A stretch of DNA of 64,000 nucleotides from positions 6,166-70,165 of the forward strand of contig JBAZRI010000005.1 of assembly GCA_041662965.1 (NCBI GenBank), written 5' to 3'. The notes beneath the pieces were generated by a model. The model searched no databases, was not told the DNA's origin, and saw only the letters and a program-made list of their open reading frames with translations. Both the position numbers and the translations under genes were made by a program. This document shows positions 3,206 to 57,894 of this stretch, one piece after another (position 1 is the first letter of the stretch; every line of letters begins with the position of its first letter). The DNA comes from Patescibacteria group bacterium. Lineage in GTDB: Bacteria; Patescibacteriota; Patescibacteriia; Patescibacteriales; GWC2-42-12.

Positions 3206-3315
3206 AATCGTATCATTTATGCTCTATAATCGTATCATATTGATACGATTATGGCAAGAGTATGCAGTTTTCTTACAACAAAAATCGCCAAAAAATCAAG
3301 CCTTGCCCTATAAAC

Positions 3316-3348
3316 AAAACGCCCCGTATTCCTACGAGGCGTTTTTAT
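3316..3348 (-). terminator. Intrinsic terminator after the small CDS 3368..3547; identical 33-mer to 982..1014
   Basis: aaaacgccccgtattcctacgaggcgtttttat, 20 nt downstream of the stop at 3368 on the minus strand. Confidence 0.7.
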
Positions 3349-3367
3349 GGCCTAAATTTTTATATAG

Positions 3368-9392: not shown

Positions 9393-9574
9393 TCTAAATT
9401 AATTGTTATCGCGAGGAGAGCGGCGGTGCGACGCGGCAATCTGATTATTTGTCATCTCGACGACCGCAGGGAGGAGAGATCTATAATAGTCGGCTAGCTC
9501 GACTGTCAAGAATTATAGATTTCTCGCCTACGGCTCGAAATGACAAAACTACAGAGTCGCCCGCAATGACAAAT
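9385..9574. repeat. Cluster of GC-rich palindromic repeat modules (family 1 variants)
   Basis: gttatcgcgag...gcggcaatct; inverted pair gtcatctcga...atctataat / attatagat...tcgaaatgac around a central palindrome; gcccgcaatgac. Confidence 0.85.
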
Positions 9575-9578
9575 AGCC

Positions 9579-12350
9579 TTATTTTTCCTCAACGATTATG
9601 CCGATTATTTTATCCTGATTTAAATCTTCGGTGATTAACCAGCCGTCCGCGCCGCCGCCTAAATCAACCGGATATTTCCAGATTGGCGCGAAGCCGCCGC
9701 CTAATTTTAATTCGCTGGTTATGGTGGATGAATTCATGCCCGGCTGTTTTTGCACTAACAGCGAATATGAATATAAATTTTTCTGTTCCGGATTTAAAAC
9801 CGCGCCGGCCTTGGTGATAAGCTGATCCGCGAAATTATCTCCGGCCGGCTCCGGCTTAGCGGTTAATTTAAAAGGCAGTTTATATTTTATATTTATTTCA
9901 ACGGTTTCCCCCGGGTCAAGCTGGGACCAGTTGGCGAAGACGGTTTTATTGAATTCATTATAAATTTTCGTGCCGGTGGCTTCGTCCGTTCGCGCCTGGC
10001 TTTCGGCGGCGAAAACTTCGGGATCATTTTCCAGGCCGGCCATTTCTTTATCAAAAAATATTTTATCCACCGGCTTAAAGCCGCTAACTTCCAATAATTC
10101 CGAGCCGAGCGGCACGTAAACTCTTAGCCAATTAACGTTTCTCACTCCGGAAAAAGGCTCGCGCTTAATCGCTTCATGAACGCGCCTAATAGTTAAATTA
10201 TTAATAATTGACCCGTCCGGCTGAATTTCGCTTTGCTGGATAATTTCCTGCTTGATTTTACGGTCGCTTTTTCCGCCGGCGATGTTAGTATTGATAACAT
10301 TTAAATAATCGCCGGCCGTATCTTTAATCCGGCCGCTCCAGCCCAAGTCATCGGCTTTAGCCTGTAAAGCTTCATCCGTAAAATAAAATAAAATATTTTT
10401 GCCGGCGAGCGACTCTTCAATCGCCTTAAATAACGGCCCTAAATTATCCTTAGTCAGCCGCTTAGGCAATTCTTCAATAATTTTATTCATTAAATCACCG
10501 ATGATTTTTTTCGGCTCTCTGGTTACGTCCGGTTTTTGCTCGGCCAGTTTTTGCGTTTCCATAAAGAAATTATCCGCGCCGATAGTTAAGCCGTATTTTT
10601 CTTGCAAATCCACCGGGCCGATTATGGCTAACAATTTTTCCATCACGGTTGGCGTAAAGCTAATAACGCCGTCAACGGTTGAACCGTCGGAATTTTCATA
10701 AAACCAAGCGAGCTTTTCCGCGCTGGTCGGCCAATCCGGCCACCAATTCGCGTCCCAAAAATGCCAATCGGCCCTAACCAGACTTAAAGGCTCCGGCGCT
10801 TTTATTTTTTTTAAAAAACCGGCATCAGTATCGTAGCTGCCGCCGCCCGGAACTTCAATATTTTTTATCTCGCCTTTGGAAAAATCTATTAAAGCAAAAC
10901 TGCCGATAAAGCCGCCCGAAGCGCGCAGTTCCGAGTTATTTTGAAAGACTAATAGATAGCGCTTAGCCGCGCTGGCGCCTAAAAAATTTCCGAGGCTATC
11001 GGCTAAACTGATAAATTCTTTTAAGCCGCGGCTAAGCTGGCCGGCTTTTTGTTTTAATAAAATAAATTCTGTTTGGTAATTTTCCGGTATAACCTCGCTG
11101 TTTATCTGGTCTAAGGTTTTATTTAATTCGCTTAAATCGGTTATGGCGTTATTTCCGTAAAAACTTAAATTCTTTAAAATGTTATTAACGTTATCGGCCC
11201 GGTAGCTAAACAGGCTCTCCATAGCCAAGCTTAAATTTTTTCCCGCGGCCGCGCTTAGCTCGCCGGCGCGCAAAATATTTTTGCCGGCGGCGGCCAGGCG
11301 CATATTTTTATCAGGCAAAACCGAAGCTAAAGCGAAAAGCAAACCGTTGATTTCTTTTAGCTCGTTTTGCGCGCTTAAAAAATTATCGCCGGCGCTTTTA
11401 AAGCCTTGGCCGGCTTGGTTAAAATTAAAATTCGCGGCCGATTGCCCGGCGGAAATTAAATTGCCAATGGCGCTCTCGCTGGCGCCTAAAACCTTGCCGC
11501 GAACCACGTTGATAACTTTATAATAGGTAAAAGCTTTAACCGGTAAAATTATGATAAATAATATTCCGGCGAAAATTAAAACCGGCTTTAAGTAGCCAAC
11601 TAACCGCCTGTCATTGCGAGGAGCGATAGCGACGAAGCAATCTCTTTCTTCGCCAACAGATTTCTTTTCCGCCGCCGCGAGCGACCGCAGGGAGCGAAGC
11701 AATCTCGCGAAGATTGAAACAGCCGCTAGCTGCTTAGCCTGAAGGTCTTGAGGTATATTTTTAATAACTTTATTTACTGCCGGGTGAAATTTAATAAATA
11801 ACAGATAACCCGCTTTTTTAATCGGCTTAATTATGGCTAAAAGCAAAAAGTAAGCCAGCCTTAAAATAAAGACGATTGTCCAGCCGGCCGCGTAGCAAAT
11901 TTTATAAAGCAGCCAATAAACTTTTTTTAGAATAAAATACAGCGCCTTGCCTAAAACGATAAGCGCCAGCTGATTAGATAAAACAACCAAGTAACTGTCA
12001 TTGCGAGCGACCGCAGGGAGCGCGGCAATCTTATTCTTTCTCTTTTTGTCATTGCGAGCTGGCTTTTCCTTTGTCATTCCCGCGAAGGCGGGAATCCAGA
12101 AATTACGGCTGCGAACCATTAAGGCTATAATATTCTTTTTGGCATTTTCACTCCCCGCCTTTAGTATTCCCTTGTAATCCACTTCCGCCAATTTTTCCAG
12201 CTTTTCTTCAAGACGTCCGACGTCTCCAAGACGTCGGACGTCTTTTGCTTTGGTTTCTTCTTTAGGCAGATTCTGCTTTAAATCAATAACAAAACGGGAC
12301 GATTTCACATCCGGGTTAACTTTTAAATTATGGGGATTATTTAAAGCCAT
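9579..12350 (-). CDS. DUF4012 domain protein (paralog 1) with repeat-derived N-terminal extension
   Basis: LLVFQNNSELRASGGFIGSFALIDFSKGEI and WHFWDANWWPDWP parallel the second paralog at 30561..32555. The N-terminal ~250 aa carries in-frame repeat modules. Confidence 0.8.
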   Translation of the reverse strand: MALNNPHNLKVNPDVKSSRFVIDLKQNLPKEETKAKDVRRLGDVGRLEEKLEKLAEVDYKGILKAGSENAKKNIIALMVRSRNFWIPAFAGMTKEKPARNDKKRKNKIAALPAVARNDSYLVVLSNQLALIVLGKALYFILKKVYWLLYKICYAAGWTIVFILRLAYFLLLAIIKPIKKAGYLLFIKFHPAVNKVIKNIPQDLQAKQLAAVSIFARLLRSLRSLAAAEKKSVGEERDCFVAIAPRNDRRLVGYLKPVLIFAGILFIIILPVKAFTYYKVINVVRGKVLGASESAIGNLISAGQSAANFNFNQAGQGFKSAGDNFLSAQNELKEINGLLFALASVLPDKNMRLAAAGKNILRAGELSAAAGKNLSLAMESLFSYRADNVNNILKNLSFYGNNAITDLSELNKTLDQINSEVIPENYQTEFILLKQKAGQLSRGLKEFISLADSLGNFLGASAAKRYLLVFQNNSELRASGGFIGSFALIDFSKGEIKNIEVPGGGSYDTDAGFLKKIKAPEPLSLVRADWHFWDANWWPDWPTSAEKLAWFYENSDGSTVDGVISFTPTVMEKLLAIIGPVDLQEKYGLTIGADNFFMETQKLAEQKPDVTREPKKIIGDLMNKIIEELPKRLTKDNLGPLFKAIEESLAGKNILFYFTDEALQAKADDLGWSGRIKDTAGDYLNVINTNIAGGKSDRKIKQEIIQQSEIQPDGSIINNLTIRRVHEAIKREPFSGVRNVNWLRVYVPLGSELLEVSGFKPVDKIFFDKEMAGLENDPEVFAAESQARTDEATGTKIYNEFNKTVFANWSQLDPGETVEINIKYKLPFKLTAKPEPAGDNFADQLITKAGAVLNPEQKNLYSYSLLVQKQPGMNSSTITSELKLGGGFAPIWKYPVDLGGGADGWLITEDLNQDKIIGIIVEEK
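11610..11709. repeat. Family-1 modules inside the DUF4012 CDS
   Basis: gtcattgcgaggagcgatagcgacgaagcaatctc and gcgagcgaccgcagggagcgaagcaatctcgcg, read in frame as ...CFVAIAPRND... and ...LRSLRSLAAA... Confidence 0.9.
11997..12099. repeat. Family-1 modules inside the DUF4012 CDS
   Basis: gtcattgcgagcgaccgcagggagcgcggcaatct, gtcattgcgagc, gtcattcccgcgaaggcgggaatccag, read in frame as ...PAFAGMTKEKPARNDKK...AALPAVARND... Confidence 0.9.
12211..12243. repeat. Tandem 15-nt palindromes agacgtcSgacgtct (each with two GACGTC cores) inside the CDS
   Basis: agacgtccgacgtct (12211..12225) and agacgtcggacgtct (12229..12243). A third copy lies at 39251..39265. Confidence 0.9.
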
Positions 12351-15886: not shown

Positions 15887-16007
15887 GTCATTGCGGGCTT
15901 GACCCGCAATCCAGGTTAAATCCGTAATAAATTTGCGATTAAAATATACTTTCAGAAACAACACCTGTGCTTTCTATTCTGGATTCCGGCTCGGAGGCCG
16001 GAATGAC
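15887..16007. repeat. Composite repeat: module C forward (15887..15914) and module D reverse (15979..16007)
   Basis: gtcattgcgggcttgacccgcaatccag ... ctggattccggctcggaggccggaatgac. Module D lies inside the 3' end of CDS 15939..17747. Confidence 0.9.
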
Positions 16008-17747
16008 AGAGGAAATTGAGCTTTGCAATGACAATTTATATAAAGTAAAATCTTCGGTAACTTTGGCTACGGTTTCTATTTTTAAGCCGAAGGGCGGCAG
16101 TTTTCTGTTATTTAAATAATTAAAATCTTTCTCCGGAAAAGTAAAATTATAATAATAAACCGGCAGATATTGAGTTAAAACCGCGTATTCTTTTATCATA
16201 TTAGGGTCGTCAAACAAGCCGACGATCACTTTTCTGGCCGGAAATAACAGCTTATCATGATACTGGGTGACGATAACCGCTCTGGCTTCGGTTAAATTCA
16301 AAATTTGCTCGTATTCGGCGCGAACCGCCAGTTGCTTTTGCGCCGATTTTATCAGGCCTTCTTCCGAACCGAATAAAACAAACCTGATGGAAATAAAAAA
16401 TACCAATAAAATTATTAAGGCGCGCAGGCCGTAAATAAATATTTTTTTCTTGAAAATATTGGATAACTTCACTAAAAAAATAACGGCCAAAGGTATGGCG
16501 CCAAGATAAATCGGCAGCCAGTAGCGGGTATAGGAATTGCCGATGGTCCGGCTTTTAGGATCCGGATTGTCATGAAAATCCCAACTGCCGTAATAGGAAA
16601 TTAAAATCGCGGCCGCGGCGAATAAAGCCAATAAATAAACATAATGCTTTTTCCGCCATTTTTTTATTTTTGACAAGAGGAGCAGAAAGCCGAAAAACGC
16701 CGGCCAGAAAATCCAATAAAACATTTTAGCGAAATAAAAATACAGCATTTTCAGGCTTTTAAGCGGCTGATAGCCGAAGTGAAAAATATTATTTTTTATC
16801 TGCGTTAAATCGTTTTTAACCGCCCCGGAATTTATAGCCCCGATTTTTAAAATTTCCGAGCCGGCGCTGGCAATATTTAAGATAGACTGGTTCATTTCGT
16901 TATAGCCGCCGCGCCAAAATGATTGATAGAGTATTTTATTCCAATACATGGCCGGCGACAAAGCGAAAAATAAGCAGGCGATAAAAATCATAAGCTTGAT
17001 CAGGCCGAATTTTTTAATATTAAACAGCCAGATTACGAGCCAGACCGGAGCCAGCCAGATTAATTCAGAAGTCCGCGTTATTATAGTTAGGCCTAAAAAA
17101 GCGCCGCTTAAACCGGCGGCCAGATTCGGTAAAATACCGGCGGCGGCAGTCTTAACTTTATCCATATCCGGCTCGGCCTTTTTCTTTTTTACGGATATTA
17201 CGGCGAAATAAAGGCTGATGACAAGCAAGACAACGAACAGCACATTATGGAACATGCTGCGGGCGCTGTAATAAACCAAGGGCGGAAAAACGGCGAGAAC
17301 CAGCGCGGAAATTAAAGCGTTGCGTTTGCCGAAAATCTGCTTAATCAATAAATAATAAAAAATAATGCCTAAAGCGGCGAAAAACGGCGTGAGATACGGT
17401 AAAATTTTATAAGTGGTTAAGCCGGCGATCTTGCCGTAAATTAAAATAATGCCTAAAAAACTTACCGGCTTTAAGTAGCCGAAATCGCTTCTGACGCTGC
17501 GCGGATGCAGGATATCGGAAGACAGAATATTATATTTTTCATAAATCATCAGCTGGCCTTCCTGGGCGTAAAGTTTGGTAAAATTATAATTCGCCGATTC
17601 GTCCGGCGACAGCCATTTAACAAAATCTCCGGATTGCGTATAATAATTAAAGCTGGCCGTGCCGATGAAAAAACAAACCGCGGCCATAATTATAACAATT
17701 ATACGCCAGTATTTTTTCAGCCATTTTTTAAATACGCCCAATATCAT
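15939..17747 (-). CDS. GT-C-fold (family 39/ArnT/PMT-like) polytopic membrane glycosyltransferase, putative
   Basis: 602 aa with many hydrophobic segments, inside a glycosylation gene cluster. The C-terminal tail VIPASEPESRIESTG is repeat-derived. Confidence 0.5.
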   Translation of the reverse strand: MILGVFKKWLKKYWRIIVIIMAAVCFFIGTASFNYYTQSGDFVKWLSPDESANYNFTKLYAQEGQLMIYEKYNILSSDILHPRSVRSDFGYLKPVSFLGIILIYGKIAGLTTYKILPYLTPFFAALGIIFYYLLIKQIFGKRNALISALVLAVFPPLVYYSARSMFHNVLFVVLLVISLYFAVISVKKKKAEPDMDKVKTAAAGILPNLAAGLSGAFLGLTIITRTSELIWLAPVWLVIWLFNIKKFGLIKLMIFIACLFFALSPAMYWNKILYQSFWRGGYNEMNQSILNIASAGSEILKIGAINSGAVKNDLTQIKNNIFHFGYQPLKSLKMLYFYFAKMFYWIFWPAFFGFLLLLSKIKKWRKKHYVYLLALFAAAAILISYYGSWDFHDNPDPKSRTIGNSYTRYWLPIYLGAIPLAVIFLVKLSNIFKKKIFIYGLRALIILLVFFISIRFVLFGSEEGLIKSAQKQLAVRAEYEQILNLTEARAVIVTQYHDKLLFPARKVIVGLFDDPNMIKEYAVLTQYLPVYYYNFTFPEKDFNYLNNRKLPPFGLKIETVAKVTEDFTLYKLSLQSSISSVIPASEPESRIESTGVVSESIF

Positions 17748-17770: not shown

Positions 17771-17869
17771 TGTCATTGCGAGGAGCTTCAGCGACGAAGC
17801 AATCTCACGTACTCGGAATTTAACCAGAGATTGCTTCGTCGCCCCGAGTACGGGGCTTCTCGCAATGAC
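17771..17869. repeat. Inverted pair of family-1 units
   Basis: gtcattgcgag-gagcttcag-cgacgaagcaatctc ... gagattgcttcgtcg-ccccgagtacggggctt-ctcgcaatgac. Confidence 0.9.
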
Positions 17870-21975: not shown

Positions 21976-22149
21976 TGTCATTGCGAGAAGTGAATGAAGC
22001 GGAGCGTAATGAGCGACGAAGCAATCTCTGGTTTAATGGCGTGTGCGTGGATTTTTACCAGAGATTGCTTCGTCGCTGAAGCTCCTCGCAATGACAAATT
22101 AAATTTAAATTTAAAAAATGCACAAACCTGCCTACCGGCAGGCAGGTTT
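21976..22149. repeat. Inverted pair of family-1 units plus a cctgcc...ggcagg hairpin module
   Basis: gtcattgcgag...cgacgaagcaatctctgg / ccagagattgcttcgtcgctgaagctcctcgcaatgac; aaacctgcctaccggcaggcaggttt (22124..22149). Confidence 0.9.
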
Positions 22150-23832: not shown

Positions 23833-24501
23833 CTAATTGACCAGCATGGCGATAAACAAATCTTTTAGAATTTTCAGGCCGCCGGAAAAACTTTGCCCGA
23901 AATTATGGTAAATGACTTTAATGGGTATTTCTTTAACTTTAAAATTATTCTTTTTTACTTCAAACATTATCTCCGAGCAATGCGCCATCCGATCCTGCTT
24001 CCAGCTGATTCTACGCGCCGCCTCGGCCGACATCGCTCTGAAACCGCTTTGCGGGTCAGTCAAATTTACATTAAAAAATACTTTATTAACCGCTTTAGCC
24101 AAAGGCATAATAAAATATTTTTTGAAAAAAGGCATGCCTAAGCTGTGCTCGGCGTTAAGAAAGCGCGAACCGAAAACAACTTGCGCTCTGCCGTCTTTAA
24201 TCGGCGCCGCGATGCGTTCTATATCTTGGCTTAAAAACTGGCCATCGGCGTCAAAATGGACGATTATATCGGCGCCATTGTTTAAGCAATACTTAGTTCC
24301 GGTTCTTAAGGCCGCGCCTTGCCCGCGGTTTATTATATGCTTAAGCAAAACCGCGCCGGCCCGCGCGGCTAAATCAGCCGTCCGATCGCTTGAGCCGTCG
24401 TCAACAATCACTAGCCTATCAACCAGCGGACGTACCTGGTTAATTATTGTTATTATGTTTTTTTCTTCATTGAACGCCGGAATGACACAAAAAATCTTCA
24501 T
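23833..24501 (-). CDS. Glycosyltransferase family 2 (polyprenol-phosphate sugar transferase-like)
   Basis: VIPAFNEEKNI, IVDDGSSDRT, FDADGQ. Confidence 0.85.
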   Translation of the reverse strand: MKIFCVIPAFNEEKNIITIINQVRPLVDRLVIVDDGSSDRTADLAARAGAVLLKHIINRGQGAALRTGTKYCLNNGADIIVHFDADGQFLSQDIERIAAPIKDGRAQVVFGSRFLNAEHSLGMPFFKKYFIMPLAKAVNKVFFNVNLTDPQSGFRAMSAEAARRISWKQDRMAHCSEIMFEVKKNNFKVKEIPIKVIYHNFGQSFSGGLKILKDLFIAMLVN

Positions 24502-24525
24502 AAATAATTATATTAGCACCTCATG

Positions 24526-24624
24526 TTTGGGCTAAATTTATAAAATTTTCGTGCGAGGACTGTTTGAGCCCAAGTAATCTTGGGTGAGTTCCGAGAGGAG
24601 AAAATTTTATAAATTTAGCCCAAA
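24526..24624. repeat. Rod-like hairpin element, family 2, copy 1
   Basis: Perfect 25-bp arms tttgggctaaatttataaaattttc / gaaaattttataaatttagcccaaa. Cores gtgcgaggactgtttgag and gagttccgagaggag. Apical hairpin cccaag-taat-cttggg. Confidence 0.9.
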
Positions 24625-24643
24625 CTATATGTCGTAAATTTTT

Positions 24644-27960: not shown

Positions 27961-29229
27961 CTAAATTTTTTCCAAAAGCGCCAATGTTTCCCGGGCGCAT
28001 TTAGCCAGGCTAAAGTCTTTTACTCTGATAAAACCGTTAGAGATTAATTGATCGGCCAATTCTCTGTCCAATAATATTTTCGCCATTTTTTGCGCCATAT
28101 CATCCTTATCCCCCGGGTTGAAAAGCAAAGCTGAATCTTTAACAACTTCCCTTATGGAAGCGATATTGGAAGCCGCGACCGGCGTGCCGCAAACCATGGC
28201 CTGGAGCAAAGGTATGCCAAACCCTTCATAGAGCGAAGGAAAAACAAATAAAGCGGCGCCGTTATAAATATAAGGCATATCGGCTTCCGGCACCCAGCCG
28301 GTCATAATTACGTTATCTTCAAGATCATATTCGTTTATGACATATTTAATTTCATCATAGCCGGAGTCGGCTCTGCCTACTAAAACCAACTTAGGCTTTA
28401 TCTGGCTGAATTTTTGCCTCATGATGGCATAAGCGCCGACCAGATTAGCGGTATTTTTCTTTTTTTCCAAGCGGCCGGCATAAAAAATATAAGGGGCTTT
28501 AATGTCATATTTATTTAAAACTTGTTTTATTTTTTCCGCGTCCTGAATCGGGCGATAAAGCGCGCCGTTAAAGCCGTTATAAACCACTTTAATTTTTTCC
28601 GCGTCAGCTTGATAAAATTCCACCATTTCTTTTTTAGTAAATTCAGACACCGCGATAATTGTTTTGGCGTGCTTGAGCGCGAATTTCGTTGACCAGCTAT
28701 GATAATCAATAACATTTGAATGAAACTTGCCTAAAGTAAACAACCTGACTAAAAAATTGAAAACTCCGGAAATTAAGCCGCTGGCCGGGCCGATTTTATC
28801 CGAACTGTAAAGTTTGGCCTGGCGCTCAAAACCTATGTCATGGATAGTAACGATTGATTTTTTCGGATGAATAACCGGCAGAGTGTGAGCCGGTATGAAA
28901 AGTACGTCTGCCCGATGCATTAACATTTCATAAGACAAGCGAATTTGCGTCCAAAAAAAAGTAAAAGGCCAGTTTAAAATTTTAACGCGGAAATTACAAT
29001 TTGGACTTTTAATTTCTTGCCAGCCGTAGCCGTCTATTTTACCCGGCTTAGCCGAATAATTTTCATCGGTTAAATCAGCTAAGCCGCCGGTTAAAGGCTT
29101 ATCACTATATAAAATATATTGATTTTTTGAATCAATTTTAGCCAGCTCTCTTATCAAATAATAAGAATACCACTCCGTACCGCCTTTAAATTTTCTATTC
29201 GCCCTTGAGGCGTCAATGCCGATAAGCAT
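27961..29229 (-). CDS. Glycosyltransferase family 4
   Basis: EGFGIPLLQAMVCGTPVAASN. Confidence 0.85.
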   Translation of the reverse strand: MLIGIDASRANRKFKGGTEWYSYYLIRELAKIDSKNQYILYSDKPLTGGLADLTDENYSAKPGKIDGYGWQEIKSPNCNFRVKILNWPFTFFWTQIRLSYEMLMHRADVLFIPAHTLPVIHPKKSIVTIHDIGFERQAKLYSSDKIGPASGLISGVFNFLVRLFTLGKFHSNVIDYHSWSTKFALKHAKTIIAVSEFTKKEMVEFYQADAEKIKVVYNGFNGALYRPIQDAEKIKQVLNKYDIKAPYIFYAGRLEKKKNTANLVGAYAIMRQKFSQIKPKLVLVGRADSGYDEIKYVINEYDLEDNVIMTGWVPEADMPYIYNGAALFVFPSLYEGFGIPLLQAMVCGTPVAASNIASIREVVKDSALLFNPGDKDDMAQKMAKILLDRELADQLISNGFIRVKDFSLAKCARETLALLEKI

Positions 29230-29245
29230 AAAAATTGTATATAAT

Positions 29246-29360
29246 ATTGGGCTAAATTTAGAAAATTTTCGTGCGAGGACTGCCTGCCTGCCGGCAGGCA
29301 GGTTTGAGGAGCTTTAAGCGACGAGTTCCGCAGTAGAAAATTTACTAAATTTAGCCCAAT
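29246..29360. repeat. Rod-like hairpin element, family 2, copy 2 (carries an extra inserted GC hairpin)
   Basis: attgggctaaatttagaaaattttc...gaaaatttactaaatttagcccaat. Core gtgcgaggactg followed by inserted cctgcctgccggcaggcagg, then tttgag...gagttccgcagtag. Confidence 0.9.
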
Positions 29361-29380
29361 TAATATGTAGTATAATAATT

Positions 29381-30388
29381 TTATTTCGTCGCAAAAATAC
29401 TCCGTTTATACGAGTCCAAATTCTCAAGCGCTATCCCCGTGCCTTTGGCCACGCAAAGAAGCGCGTCGTCCGCCACGTAAGCCGGCACGTCGGTGGTGCG
29501 TGAAAGCAACTGGTCAATGTTTCTTAGGAGCGACGAGCCGCCCGAGAGTACCATGCCTTTATCCATAATGTCGGCGGCTAATTCCGGCGGAGTATCCTGC
29601 AAAACTCTTTTAGCGGCTTGGATTATAGCTTCCAGCTCATTTTGAATCGCTTCGGTAACATCATCGGAATTAACCATAATATTTCTCGGTAAGCCGGTAA
29701 TCATATCGCGGCCGCGTATTTCCATGGTTAATTTGTCTTCCAAATATAAAGCGCTGCCGATTTTAATTTTAGTCTCCTCGGCCGTTCTTTCGCCGATGGC
29801 TAAATTATATTTTCGCCTGATAAATTCCTGAATGGCCGCGTCAAATTTATTGCCGCCGATGCGCACCGAAGTTGAAGTTACTACTCCGCCTAGTGAAATT
29901 ACCGCCATTTCCGCCGTGCCGCCGCCAATATCAATAATCATATGCCCGGAAGCCGAACCGATGGGAATATCGGCGCCGATAGCCGCGGCAATCGGCTCTT
30001 TTATAATATAAGCCGCTCTGGCTCCGGCCGCGATAGTCGCGTCAATAACCGCCCGGCGTTCGGTTGAAGTAATGCCGGCCGGAACCGCTACCATAACTTC
30101 CGGCCGGAACAATCTTATGCCGCCTAGAGCTTTATTGATAAAATATCGGAGCATGGCTTCGGTAGTATGATAATCGGCAATCACGCCGTCTTTCAGCGGC
30201 TTAATGGCGACAATAGTGTCCGGCGTTCGGCCTAACATATCTTTAGCTTCATTGCCCACGGCTAAAATCTTTTTATCAATCAAAGAAATCGCCACCACCG
30301 AAGGTTCGTTAATAATAATGCCTCTTTTAGGCAGATGCACTAAAGTATAAGTTGTACCTAAATCTATGCCGATCCGCTTGATAAACAT
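29381..30388 (-). CDS. mreB: Rod shape-determining protein MreB
   Basis: IGIDLGTTYTLV, actin-fold motifs throughout. Start moved to MFIKR because the upstream ATG lies inside a repeat module. Confidence 0.9.
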   Translation of the reverse strand: MFIKRIGIDLGTTYTLVHLPKRGIIINEPSVVAISLIDKKILAVGNEAKDMLGRTPDTIVAIKPLKDGVIADYHTTEAMLRYFINKALGGIRLFRPEVMVAVPAGITSTERRAVIDATIAAGARAAYIIKEPIAAAIGADIPIGSASGHMIIDIGGGTAEMAVISLGGVVTSTSVRIGGNKFDAAIQEFIRRKYNLAIGERTAEETKIKIGSALYLEDKLTMEIRGRDMITGLPRNIMVNSDDVTEAIQNELEAIIQAAKRVLQDTPPELAADIMDKGMVLSGGSSLLRNIDQLLSRTTDVPAYVADDALLCVAKGTGIALENLDSYKRSIFATK

Positions 30389-30398
30389 AAGATATAAT

Positions 30399-30551
30399 GT
30401 CATTGCGAGAAGCCTGTAATCAGGCGACGAAGCAATCTCTTCCTTATTGTCATTCCCGCGAAAGCGGGAATCCAGGTTTAAACGCTATAAACAAGTTTCT
30501 GGATTGCGGGTCAAGCCCGCAATGACGAAGTAAATTTCGCTCGCAATGACA
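30399..30551. repeat. Repeat cluster: family-1 unit, composite B-spacer-C element, terminal aatgac
   Basis: gtcattgcgag-aagcctgtaatcagg-cgacgaagcaatctc; gtcattcccgcgaaagcgggaatccag (30449..30475), a 23-nt spacer, then ctggattgcgggtcaagcccgcaatgac (30499..30526). Confidence 0.9.
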
Positions 30552-30560
30552 AATAAGAAT

Positions 30561-32555
30561 TTAAAACTTAACTTCAAAGCTTCTATCTATATTTAAGTCC
30601 CCTTCCCACTTGATACTGGCCGGGCTTACTTTTCGCATATACAGGCTGGCTGGGCTATATGATTTTATACTATTTTTGAAGTTTAAGTCAACCGTAAGAT
30701 TATCTAGCTCTTTACCCGGCTGTTTTTGGATATAAAGGCCGTAGTTATTATTTAGCCTAACCGACGGCGGCAGCTTATACTCAACCGTAAGATTTTTAAT
30801 TTTCCCCGGATCAACGGTTAGATAAAAACCAAACCAAGTTTTCCCCGCTTCATTACCCGTGTCTATCTCCTTGGCGTCGTAACCGCTGATTTTAATTAAT
30901 TGGCTGCCTAACGGAACGTAGATTCTGGTATAGCTTTTATAAACGCTGGTTCTCCAATCAACCTTGCCGTTATGCGCGTAATTAAGAGTTAATTTAGAAA
31001 ATAAGCCATTAGCCCCCTCGGTTACTTTATAATTTATGCTCCGGCTCATAACCGCGTCGGTTTTTAAAGCCCCGAAATTAGCATCAACTACCATAAAATA
31101 ATCGCTATAATAATTCTTTATTTCTCCGGCCCAGCCGTTAGCCGCCGCGATGCTTTCTAATTGGTTGTCAGTTAAATAAAGCAATAAATCCTTCTCGGCT
31201 AAATTATTAATCGCGGTATTTATAATTTCCGACCATTGGTTCGGCGGCAAATCAAAAATTTTAATTTTTAATTTTTTAGCTATTTCGCCGATAACTTCTT
31301 TCCTCTGCCAATTAGAAACGCCTAAAACCATATAGCCTCTTTCTACCTGATATTGCAATAAATCGTGAAAATTGTTTTGGTCATAAGATTGGCCTTCAAC
31401 TATTATCGGGCCGGTTATTTTCAAAAAATCAGTGATTAATTTCGGCGTAAAGGCGATAACGCCGTTAAACTTTGGAATTTTCTCCGCCTCCGGGTTTAAA
31501 CGGCTTTCAATTTGATAAAACTTATCTATGTTTTTCGCGGCGGTCGGCCAATCAGGCGACCAGTTAGCGTCGCGCATATACCATTTATCGTTTAAATACT
31601 TTTTAATCGGTTCCGGCGGCTCCATATTCATTTTGCTTTGAGCCGGCATGTCAAGGTGATAAATATCATGCGTGCCAAAATTTATTATATCGCCGTCTTT
31701 AATTTTTAATATGGCGTAAGTGCCTAAAAATCCCCCGGTCGGCCTTAATTCGTCATTATTCTGCAGCAAGACTAAATAATTAACTTCGCTGGGGTAGCCG
31801 GCCAGAGCCGGAATCATCTGCGACAAAGGAACTGCTTTCTCTAAAATAAGGCTGGCTTGGCTTATTTGTTCTTTAACCTGGCCGATTTTATCTTTTAAGA
31901 TAAACAAAATGCCCGAGGTGCTTATTTGATCTAAATTAATATAAGCTAAATCCAGATCGGCTTTTATGCCGTTTAATTCCGGCGCCGACTCAAATATTTT
32001 TCCAAGAAGATTGCGCTTGACTTCCGGGCTTAATTTAGAAAAATTAAATTTATTATCTCCGGTTAAAAAAGCTTCAAGGCTAAGGCCGAAATTCGCCCCG
32101 CCAGCGACCGCTTTGCTTAAAAATTGAACGGAAATTAAAAGGCCTTCGGCGTCGTTTAGCTGGCTTATAGCTAACGGCAGACGGCTTATAAAATTATTGC
32201 TTTTTATCTCTTCAAGCTTATTGATTGAAAAATCAAAATTATTTTCCGCTTGTTTGGCTAGCTTAACGGCTTGATTAAAATCTTTCTGTTCGGCGAAGAT
32301 AACGGCTTGCTCTAAATTAGCTTTGCCGAAATTTGCCTGATCGTAAATTTGCTTTAAATCAATAATTTGTGACGATAAAAAAATCAGCAGCAGTAAAAAT
32401 AAAAAAACTACTGTCAAGCAAAAATATTTTAAAACTTTATACGCTGAATTTAAGCGCCGGCGCTTTTTAACCGGCGGAAGCCGGCCGATTAAGCCATCGG
32501 CCGCTTCGTGCAAGTCTTTAAAATTTATATGTTTTGATTTTGAAAAATGAAACAT
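30561..32555 (-). CDS. DUF4012 domain protein (paralog 2)
   Basis: YLVLLQNNDELRPTGGFLGTYAILKIKDGDI; WYMRDANWSPDWP; N-terminal TM segment. Confidence 0.8.
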   Translation of the reverse strand: MFHFSKSKHINFKDLHEAADGLIGRLPPVKKRRRLNSAYKVLKYFCLTVVFLFLLLLIFLSSQIIDLKQIYDQANFGKANLEQAVIFAEQKDFNQAVKLAKQAENNFDFSINKLEEIKSNNFISRLPLAISQLNDAEGLLISVQFLSKAVAGGANFGLSLEAFLTGDNKFNFSKLSPEVKRNLLGKIFESAPELNGIKADLDLAYINLDQISTSGILFILKDKIGQVKEQISQASLILEKAVPLSQMIPALAGYPSEVNYLVLLQNNDELRPTGGFLGTYAILKIKDGDIINFGTHDIYHLDMPAQSKMNMEPPEPIKKYLNDKWYMRDANWSPDWPTAAKNIDKFYQIESRLNPEAEKIPKFNGVIAFTPKLITDFLKITGPIIVEGQSYDQNNFHDLLQYQVERGYMVLGVSNWQRKEVIGEIAKKLKIKIFDLPPNQWSEIINTAINNLAEKDLLLYLTDNQLESIAAANGWAGEIKNYYSDYFMVVDANFGALKTDAVMSRSINYKVTEGANGLFSKLTLNYAHNGKVDWRTSVYKSYTRIYVPLGSQLIKISGYDAKEIDTGNEAGKTWFGFYLTVDPGKIKNLTVEYKLPPSVRLNNNYGLYIQKQPGKELDNLTVDLNFKNSIKSYSPASLYMRKVSPASIKWEGDLNIDRSFEVKF

Positions 32556-35302: not shown

Positions 35303-35403
35303 ATTGGCTTTAGCTTTTGTAAAATTTTCGTGCGAGGACTGTTTGAGGCCGAGTAATCTCGGCCGAGTTCCGCAGTAGAAAATTTACAAAAACTAAAGCC
35401 AAT
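35303..35403. repeat. Rod-like hairpin element, family 2, copy 3
   Basis: Different but complementary arms attggctttagcttttgtaaaatttt / aaaatttacaaaaactaaagccaat. Same cores. Apical hairpin gccgag-taat-ctcggc. Confidence 0.9.
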
Positions 35404-40000: not shown

Positions 40001-40162
40001 GTCATTGCGAGGAGGAGCGTAGCGACGACGCGGCAATCTCACGAACAATTTTACAGAATATATCTTCATTGCAGAAACAATCTATAATTTTAATAAATAG
40101 TACGTGAGATTGCCTGCCTACCGGTAGGCAGGCTTCGCTCACTGCGTTGCGCTCGCAATGAC
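40001..40162. repeat. Inverted family-1 units with an embedded cctgcc...ggcagg hairpin
   Basis: gtcattgcgaggaggagcgtagcgacgacgcggcaatctcacg ... cgtgagattgcctgcctaccggtaggcaggcttcgctcactgcgttgcgctcgcaatgac. Confidence 0.9.
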
Positions 40163-42148: not shown

Positions 42149-42247
42149 CGTGTAAAGATGTTTGTTTTGAGCGCATACGAAATTGTAAAGATTTTTCTAA
42201 AAAATCGCCCAAATTTCGTCTAAGCGAAAAACAAACATCTTTACACG
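42149..42247. repeat. Rod-like hairpin element, family 3, copy 1 (between the ABC ATPase and permease genes)
   Basis: Perfect arms cgtgtaaagatgtttgtttt / aaaacaaacatctttacacg. Cores gagcgcatacgaaattgta and cccaaatttcgtctaagc. Confidence 0.9.
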
Positions 42248-52231: not shown

Positions 52232-52311
52232 GTCATTGCGGGCTTGACCCGCAATCCAGAAACTCATTTGTAACGCCAAAACCTGGATTCCGGCTCGGAG
52301 GCCGGAATGAC
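52232..52311. repeat. Composite 80-nt element: module C, 23-nt spacer, module D reversed
   Basis: gtcattgcgggcttgacccgcaatccag-aaactcatttgtaacgccaaaac-ctggattccggctcggaggccggaatgac. Confidence 0.9.
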
Positions 52312-57561: not shown

Positions 57562-57708
57562 TCTTTCCTCCTTTTTTGCCTTATCGGCGTTTTTATGTTT
57601 ATAATAGCTTGTTATTTAAAAAGACCGCGCATTACTTTTCACAATTTCGCCCGCAGTTAGTATTACGTACGGGCAAAAAGTAAAAATTAATATGTTGTTA
57701 TATTATTG

Positions 57709-57849
57709 ATTGGGCTAAATTTATGAAATTTTCGTGAGATTACTGCAGTTAGGCTTGGAAAAATTGTTTTTATCGCGCATACGAAATTGTAGCGACCGCA
57801 GGGAGCCCAAATTTCGTCTAAGCAAAAAAAACAATTTTTCCAAGCCTAA
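57709..57849. repeat. Nested repeats: degenerate family-2 left half, then a full family-3 element with a family-1 module at its apex
   Basis: attgggctaaatttatgaaattttcgtgagattactgcag, then ttaggcttggaaaaattgttttt...gcgcatacgaaattgta-gcgaccgcagggagc-ccaaatttcgtctaagc...aaaaacaatttttccaagcctaa. Confidence 0.9.
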
Positions 57850-57894
57850 CGTATAACTACAATATTATTTCAATTTTCCTACCGCTTATTTTTG

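Follow-up and report, generated by a model that had tools for sequence, protein, structure and literature searches.

Hairpin repeats of a Patescibacteria contig as probable Ssn-related sites of small GIY-YIG nucleases

What are the hairpin repeats that sit between the genes of a Patescibacteria contig, and which protein do they answer to? The question arises at positions 30399-30551 of a 64,000-nt stretch of contig JBAZRI010000005.1 (assembly GCA_041662965.1, positions 6,166 to 70,165 of the forward strand). This whole stretch is referred to here as the window. The region is composed, in order, of a family-1 unit, a module B unit, a 23-nt spacer, a reversed module C unit, and a truncated, reversed family-1 unit. 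The units are probably (about 65%) Ssn-related hairpin repeats, i.e., sites at which small single-domain GIY-YIG nucleases of the Ssn type bind and cleave single-stranded DNA (ssDNA).

The repeats are real and not the product of chance. The window contains 18 complete units, five half-units, and two decayed units, arranged in eight clusters plus one orphan half-unit. They are multi-copy and clustered between genes. The frame common to all is GTC-hairpin-C, with the GTC and the C kept in 18/18 full units, and the stems differ among units by compensatory changes. With up to one mismatch, GTCATTSCSRG has 26 matches in the window where 3.7 are expected, a number reached in 0/100 shuffles. The frame of GTCAT, a 5-nt stem, its complement, and C has 21 matches where chance would give 0.84, and none of 200 dinucleotide shuffles exceeds 5; GTCATTGCGAG occurs exactly 11 times. 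A first-pass annotation of this DNA had placed the units in one superfamily with a shared oriented frame and counted more than 15 of them in 64 kb. The frame matches far above shuffles, the covarying stems described below, and the count of 18 complete units bear out both claims.

In family 1, a 5-bp stem (ATTGC/GCAAT) closes a long GAG...GAA loop, which often holds an inner hairpin. The copy at 30399 reads GTCATTGCGAG-AAGCCTGTAATCAGGC-GACGAAGCAATC. Its inner hairpin, GCCTG-TAAT-CAGGC, and that of the copy at 17869, GCCCCG-TACT-CGGGGC, are present as the first-pass annotation described them. Module B at 30449 reads GTCATT-CCCGC-GAAA-GCGGG-AATCCAG. The second copy was correctly placed at 12073, but its loop is GAAG and not GAAA as given earlier. 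Module C had been reported at 15887, at 52232, and reversed at 30499-30526; it is present at all three sites, and the copies are 100% identical to each other. Both reversed copies of module D, 15979-16007 and 52283-52311, are likewise in place. Scanning with the bare frame (GTC-X5...rcX5-C) adds two stem variants, ATCTC/GAGAT at 9451-9481 and ATTTC/GAAAT at 9518-9544.

The stem swapping proposed in the first-pass annotation is true compensatory change and not an effect of chance flanks. Unit alignment and a covariation test were run on 62 distinct units chosen by frame only (GTCAT, 17 free bases, ATCC). Units picked through search patterns were excluded, which avoids circularity. In the proposed 8-bp helix, 78% of cells pair, compared with 62% in shuffles and 18-42% in slid controls. 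All of the variable pairs (6/6) have changes on both sides. The covariation score is 0.39 versus 0.15 and is reached by 0/500 shuffles. The hairpin is under selection. When positions 30395-30555 are folded as ssDNA, nested hairpins of about -40 kcal/mol form on either strand, with a z-score of about -8.

One of these units matches a described system. Chenal et al. 2025 (PMC11893778) define the Neisseria Transformation Sequence (NTS) as CGTCATTCCCGCGMAVGCGGGAATCYRG, which includes a repeat described earlier, dRS3 (ATTCCC-N8-GGGAAT). SsnA is a 94-aa GIY-YIG protein that binds NTS only as ssDNA, and only one strand of it, and cleaves a few bases upstream of NTS. Binding depends most on the C just 3' of the palindrome, and cutting on the three bases 5' of the palindrome. 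SsnA does not bind the RNA form of NTS, and it lowers transformation by NTS-bearing DNA. Altering the stem while keeping the hairpin abolishes SsnA activity in Neisseria. The ssnA genes of several phyla are flanked by NTS-type repeats, in the layout NTS-ssnA-NTS (PMC11893778).

Module B fits the NTS consensus at 12072-12099 and 30448-30475, with up to one mismatch allowed; the single mismatch is at the first base. It also fits the 20-bp dRS3 and the published degenerate pattern of the Ssn-related motif (SRM), HGTCWYN(0-2)YYVSBRHN(0-5)WNVSBRGN(0-2)RNCYNB. Modules C (ATTGCG...) and D (ATTCCG...) do not fit dRS3. The GTC and 3' C conserved in the units correspond to the bases on which SsnA relies to cut and to bind, respectively. 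The first-pass annotation named a match to a described repeat family with known mobilisation as a ground for refuting it. Half of this applies: module B matches NTS/dRS3 bar the first base, and mobilisation of that family is only proposed in the literature.

Full-text searches with unit sequences returned, besides the Ssn and Francisella papers, only primer coincidences. At gathering thresholds, Rfam finds a tRNA in the whole window and no family for the units. A permissive Rfam search of 30300-30650 gives a single weak match, FtrB (RF02748), at 30424-30500, with 18.3 bits against a gathering threshold of 66. FtrB is a small RNA of Francisella that contains an NTS-like unit; its probe, reverse-complemented, reads GTCATTCCCGCGTAGGCGGGAATCTC. 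The weak match arises because this hairpin unit is shared, and the likeness of the window to FtrB is limited to it. RF02748 may in part describe a repeat unit.

Units of this frame stand beside Ssn-family genes in other genomes. A consensus of the small GIY-YIG proteins, run against a protein database, gives more than 8000 clusters of ~95-aa PF01541 proteins, of which 20 were aligned. With this 20-sequence alignment, 80 loci were fetched by protein alone from species-representative genomes of many phyla. Frame units (GTC-X5...rcX5-C) lie within 400 nt of the ssn gene in 77/80 loci. The true frame has 539 matches in these loci, compared with 136-272 for decoy frames. Upstream, the unit closest to the gene shares its strand in 46/64 cases; downstream, the closest unit lies on the other strand in 46/69. 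Stems vary by genome and include ATTCT, ATCCT, ATGCT, ATTGC, ATTTC, ACCCT, ATTCC, and others. The GTC, the loop ends GAG...GAA, and the final C are constant across them. The first-pass annotation had advised looking for a RAYT-like cognate gene; the gene flanked by units elsewhere, and so the one to look for, encodes instead a GIY-YIG nuclease of about 95 aa.

The unit types of the window are themselves found in such positions. Family 1 (stem ATTGC) flanks the ssn gene in at least 16 of the 80 loci, including that of Candidatus Daviesbacteria (L093). A second search, from the Daviesbacteria protein, finds many Patescibacteria homologues. Three further ssn cassettes of the candidate phyla radiation (CPR) have the layout family-1 unit(+), 14 nt, ATG...stop, 0 to 8 nt, unit(-). 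Two ssn paralogues occur on one Hainich groundwater CPR contig. The same contig carries family-1(+), a half-unit, B(+), 23 nt, and C-like(-), nearly the layout of 30399-30526 in the window. In a scan of viral contigs for NTS-type units, five GIY-YIG genes were found. NTS brackets both sides of three of them, and the remaining two are flanked by NTS together with a closely related ATCCC-stem variant. The profile built on the first gene set hits the NTS-flanked viral proteins at 1e-25 to 1e-30, and one of them is 39% identical to a CPR protein; the viral and first gene sets are therefore one family. Module C was followed in 129 loci, composed of at least 120 metagenome stretches and nine viral stretches. 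Three of these, all metagenome loci, contain an Ssn-family gene, each abutted by C units.

NCBIfam has no specific model for the ~95-aa Ssn-like proteins, and their only solved relative is the distant UPF0213 protein 1ZG2. One Daviesbacteria ssn gene keeps the same context in 10/10 places among the matches listed, and hopping of the ssn cassette itself is unsupported. Several further observations concern these loci. L370 (2461-2500), L362 (4961-5000), and L093 (2929-3000) have a TATAAT-like box in the interval from the left unit to the ATG, at a distance of 14-34 nt; in CPR ssn cassettes the left unit may overlap the gene's own promoter. In L006 (825-3285), an IS110-family transposase gene is located just upstream of the ssn gene, amid GTCATCCTGAG-type units. 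In L230 (3586-4697), two heterotypic doublets in mirrored orientation bracket a gene pair, which recalls the NTS-gene-NTS layout of Neisseria. The first product of this pair is, by eye, like an MNT nucleotidyltransferase antitoxin; a HEPN-like identity for the second is a guess.

Within the window, units of opposite strands are joined tail to tail. The two composites described earlier, 30449-30526 (78 nt) and 52232-52311 (80 nt), are real repeated elements of the form unit, 23 nt, reversed unit. Their spacers match at 16/23 positions when one is reverse-complemented, as had been claimed, and the two elements are 88% alike over 65 nt, one reversed. A third composite, made up of C and D with a 70-nt spacer, is found at 15887-16007. 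Every window cluster with both strands has the order plus unit(s), spacer, minus unit(s); the cluster at 11610-12099 has plus units only. Tail-to-tail doublets in the window usually have unlike stems. Among adjacent pairs in metagenome loci, the plus-minus geometry occurs 69 times versus 13, 11, and 6 for the other geometries. Metagenome doublets have a spacer mode of 18-30 nt, and their partner stems are mostly different. Taking the gene out of unit(+)-ssn-unit(-) gives the same geometry as the tail-to-tail doublet, with one 'sense' unit per strand. Doublets thus resemble REPINs, defined in PMC3337134 as two inverted units and a spacer that fold into one hairpin.

Half-units are a recurrent companion of full units. 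A 5' half-unit (GTCAT, the stem, and a few bases) is often found 12-32 nt upstream of a full unit, with a pyrimidine-rich linker. In the window, half-units stand before 4/24 units, at 9545-9570, 12048-12072, 16008-16032, and 30527-30550. Elsewhere they precede 55/393 units in ssn loci (control 19) and 38/331 in metagenome loci (control 12). Examples outside the window are L025, L037, L049, L075, L093, L254, L282, and L358. The 3' halves that would match these 5' half-units are absent, and simple insertion into a unit loop was rejected for this reason.

Units come and go between relatives. The gap between the DUF4012 and MreB genes is 10 nt in L355 and L356, and 152 nt and unit-free in L357. 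In L345-L354, it holds a clean family-1 doublet, whose right arm is one base off that of the window. In the window, the left arm of this doublet is truncated, and nested in its place is the 78-nt C-B composite. The surviving arm is the family-1 unit at 30399..30437 (+), orthologous in Falkowbacteria relatives with one mismatch. Alignment with L345 identifies the 5' family-1 half at 30527..30550 (-) as the truncated left-arm remnant of the older doublet. At another site, between two GT4 genes, L357 has a gap of 16 nt where the window has 277 nt that include a doublet. L357 is the closest syntenic relative and has a single D-like unit with a longer loop (11019-11055) in 21 kb. Compared with about 20 units in the 64-kb window, this means that unit density differs sharply between relatives.

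A mechanism may be proposed from these observations. The unit would be a short oriented DNA hairpin, composed of GTC, a stem starting with A, a loop, the complementary stem, and C, which acts when single-stranded. A cognate ssn gene would lie elsewhere in this genome. Tail-to-tail doublets would be gene-less derivatives of the compact unit(+)-ssn-unit(-) cassette. They may spread and turn over in intergenic DNA in the manner of REPINs, with the help of Ssn, with nested insertions and half-units as the traces. Units with unlike stems are probably served by different nuclease paralogs or specificities. The likely consequence, as in Neisseria, is that incoming or exposed ssDNA would be cut beside units and recombination around flanked genes would be modulated.

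Several results weigh against assigning the units to Ssn nucleases. No GIY-YIG gene is found in the window by motif scan or in the window and contig pieces by tblastn with three probes, and the annotation of the 6 kb of contig that follow on the right lists no ssn or GIY-YIG gene. Window-wide, only the two module B units match the NTS and SRM patterns; modules C and D and family 1 do not. The SRM pattern matches at only 5/80 ssn loci and misses the units at 75; the GAG-loop class is therefore outside the published definition. Module D is never seen beside an ssn gene, despite 33 copies in viral loci. Since a stem change abolishes SsnA activity in Neisseria, one nuclease is unlikely to serve all of these stems. 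Ssn proteins with the same flanking stem are more alike (65.7% versus 60.9% identity, with 0/1000 permutations as high), which fits matched nuclease-site pairs yet is confounded by host relatedness. Transposition by Ssn is only proposed. The fixed Daviesbacteria locus fits a resident gene and not a jumping one. The one insertion that was aligned with its orthologous site has no evident target-site duplications, and the gene set is only a putative part of CDD family cd10448.

A broader form of the Ssn reading is more tentative. Here, the units would belong to a pan-bacterial REPIN-like replicator, made up of Ssn genes bracketed by inverted units and of gene-less doublets, and driven by a GIY-YIG nuclease acting on ssDNA. 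Stem variants would be lineages matched to paralogs. The replicator would persist even in the roughly 1-Mb genomes of Patescibacteria, with units nesting in each other and in coding regions. Such a replicator is possible, though doubtful. Recombination could instead have built the arrays without replication of units, the Ssn gene being one of several things that land there. In favour of this, NIME arrays (dRS3-RS-dRS3) vary in number at syntenic sites, and the literature records both a recombinase hypothesis and the integration of phage into dRS3. The IS110-family transposase beside the ssn gene and units in L006 would also fit, as would the window composite, which replaced part of an older doublet with no clean insertion and no target-site duplication seen. 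However, no recombinase gene is present among the open reading frames (ORFs) examined in the window. The sole gene consistently abutted by units, in 77/80 loci and many phyla, encodes a GIY-YIG nuclease, and the conserved unit positions are those that SsnA requires. Construction by recombination is unlikely.

Less probable still is that the units act mainly as RNA, either as hairpins that stabilise or end transcripts, like the REPs of E. coli, or as small RNAs. All clusters are located between or at the ends of same-strand genes, and the NTS-like unit within FtrB, at 18.3 bits, is the only Rfam hint. Intrinsic terminators were rejected; units precede CAG or TC and not T-runs. No T-run follows the hairpins on their 3' side, and no terminator-like site coincides with a unit in 29200-30700. 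Both orientations occur as doublets, an RNA hairpin alone would not need the asymmetric GTC and C, no Rfam family reaches threshold, and SsnA does not bind the RNA form (PMC11893778). Mobilisation of a REP/REPIN population by RAYT, a Y1 HUH transposase of the IS200/IS605 type, would account for the REPIN-like geometry, in which two inverted hairpin units and a short spacer fold into one long hairpin. It is nevertheless very improbable. No Y1 transposase is present among the ORFs examined in the window, and the gene flanked by units elsewhere is GIY-YIG, not Y1. The typical 5' signature of REPs is GTAG, and that of the units is GTC-A. The first-pass annotation had stated that the window lacks a transposase gene. 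This is borne out as far as the Pfam examination of ORFs reaches, with neither a transposase nor a GIY-YIG protein among the ORFs examined. These were covered by three scans (30 ORFs) and by the precomputed Pfam matches of called genes at ~19.4-40.4 kb and ~51.4-64 kb; some ORFs had no Pfam match.

Site binding by Ssn nucleases, the preferred reading, places the units next to several known systems. The closest is NTS/SRM-SsnA, the system published in 2025 to which the units are assigned. Shared with it are module B, which is NTS bar its first base, the oriented frame, the multi-copy and intergenic occurrence, and the bracketing of Ssn-family genes in other genomes by the same unit types (family 1, B, and C). 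Unlike it, C, D, and family 1 are outside the published patterns, and family 1 combines a short 5-bp stem with a long loop. Several stem types coexist within one genome, even within one 78-nt element. The host is a Patescibacteria metagenome-assembled genome and not a proteobacterium, and no ssn gene was found in the part of the contig examined. Compared with published work, the new elements are stem and loop classes not yet catalogued, doublets that are heterotypic, a host among the Patescibacteria, and the evidence for nesting and turnover.

The NIMEs of Neisseria consist of RS elements of 19-214 bp between dRS3 repeats and were claimed in 2007 to be confined to Neisseria. The window resembles them in that module B fits dRS3, short spacers are bracketed by inverted hairpin repeats, and content varies at syntenic sites between relatives. 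It differs in that at most one composite arm is a dRS3, and in that doublets with 23-70-nt spacers take the place of long arrays. Like REP/BIME/REPIN-RAYT systems, the units form inverted hairpin doublets around a spacer, alternate in orientation within arrays, occur in many gene-less copies, and have a single resident gene that is flanked by repeats and, as with RAYTs, sits at a fixed locus within a lineage. The partner protein has a GIY-YIG fold and not an HUH/Y1 fold, the 5' signature differs, and replication by the Ssn partner is only proposed. The palindromic elements of Rickettsia are short palindromic repeats found in frame inside genes. The unit at 11610-11642, which is probably in frame in a DUF4012 gene, is comparable, with unrelated sequence. 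The Rickettsia elements are not known to have a nuclease partner.

The remaining features are given along the window. A decayed family-1-like unit (GTTATCGCGAG...GACGCGGCAATC) was read in the sequence at 9405..9441 (+). The two bare-frame variants form a doublet with a 36-nt spacer. The left arm (9451..9481, +) was found by frame scan and in the sequence, and the right arm (9518..9544, -) by frame scan. Directly upstream of the right arm is a 5' half-unit, GTCATTGCGGGCGACTCTGTAGTTTT (9545..9570, -). The plus-only cluster is composed of the family-1 unit at 11610..11642 (+), a family-1 remnant read in the sequence, of which the 3' part is kept and the 5' GTCATT is missing (11677..11704, +), a family-1 variant (...GCGCGGCAATC; 11997..12030, +), a 5' half-unit (12048..12072, +), and module B. 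This module B copy (12073..12099, +; GTCATTCCCGCGAAGGCGGGAATCCAG) is a canonical NTS/dRS3 unit, as it follows the NTS consensus except for the first base and fits the SRM pattern.

The arms of the third composite are module C at 15887..15914 (+) and module D at 15979..16007 (-), with a 5' half-unit upstream of the latter (16008..16032, -). Family-1 units at 17772..17806 (+) and 17829..17869 (-, with the inner hairpin) form a doublet with a 24-nt spacer. The doublet in the GT4-GT4 gap, where L357 has only 16 nt, has a long-loop family-1 unit as its left arm (21977..22026, +), a 36-nt spacer, and a family-1 right arm (22063..22095, -). The orphan 5' half of a module-D-like unit, GTCATTCCGGC, lies at 24476..24486 (-). 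The 78-nt composite is made up of module B (NTS) at 30449..30475 (+), its spacer at 30476..30498, and module C at 30499..30526 (-). Further right, a family-1 variant (40001..40038, +) is paired across a 69-nt spacer with a family-1 unit whose loop holds the hairpin GCCTGCCTACCGGTAGGCAGGC (40108..40162, -). The 80-nt composite has module C at 52232..52259 (+), its spacer at 52260..52282, matched above to the reverse-complemented 30476-30498 spacer, and module D at 52283..52311 (-).

The window also forms part of a 73-kb contig in an ENA metagenome assembly. Its genes are almost all on the minus strand and include two DUF4012 proteins, MreB, several glycosyltransferases, a TraG-like ATPase, LexA, and Fic proteins. 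The MreB clusters at 90% identity with Candidatus Falkowbacteria. Its start ATG in the ORF list (30401-30403) lies inside the family-1 unit (AATGAC) and gives a protein of 340 aa, compared with 335 aa in all relatives. The true start is probably five codons further in. A 923-aa ORF at 9579-12350 (-) crosses five units without a stop and contains the peptides WIPAFAGMT and DCFVAIAPRND. Its similarity to the DUF4012 paralogue begins at residue 296. In-frame starts that keep the N-terminal membrane helix are found only at or above 11702, so the unit at 11610-11642, in the N-terminal tail of the gene, is probably translated.

Other repeats are also present. A second, unrelated repeat occurs at 24506-24629, 29244-29380, 35303-35372, and 57704-57745; its termini are the inverted repeats TTGGGCTAAATTTA..AAAATTTTC, and its core is GTGCGAGGACTG. 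The MreB/GT4 junction is 4 nt in relative L345 and about 150 nt, with the second repeat, in the window. The hairpin CCTGCCTGCCGGCAGGCAGG recurs at 22114-22146, at 29283-29315, and inside 40108-40162; one copy is nested in a family-1 unit loop and one is inside the second repeat family. Near-perfect palindromes of about 100 nt at 42149-42247 and 57748-57850 share the motif GCGCATACGAAATT. A terminator-like hairpin, AAAAACGCCCCGT...ACGGGGCGTTTTT, is present in three copies (975-1020, 2102-2147, and 3309-3354) around two Fic genes.

Ssn proteins are the first described site-specific nucleases that cut only ssDNA, and their sites are of practical interest as ssDNA tools. The published site definition takes in only a small part of the family; a much larger class, GTC-stem-GAG...GAA-stem-C, has at least 12 stem variants and is found around Ssn-family genes in many phyla. 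The ssn loci and their units are a ready catalogue of candidate nuclease-site pairs. A feature once thought special to Neisseria (dRS3/NIME) is extended to bacteria of the CPR. There, the units occupy intergenic DNA that is in short supply, vary among closely related genomes, and may influence recombination near cell-envelope genes.

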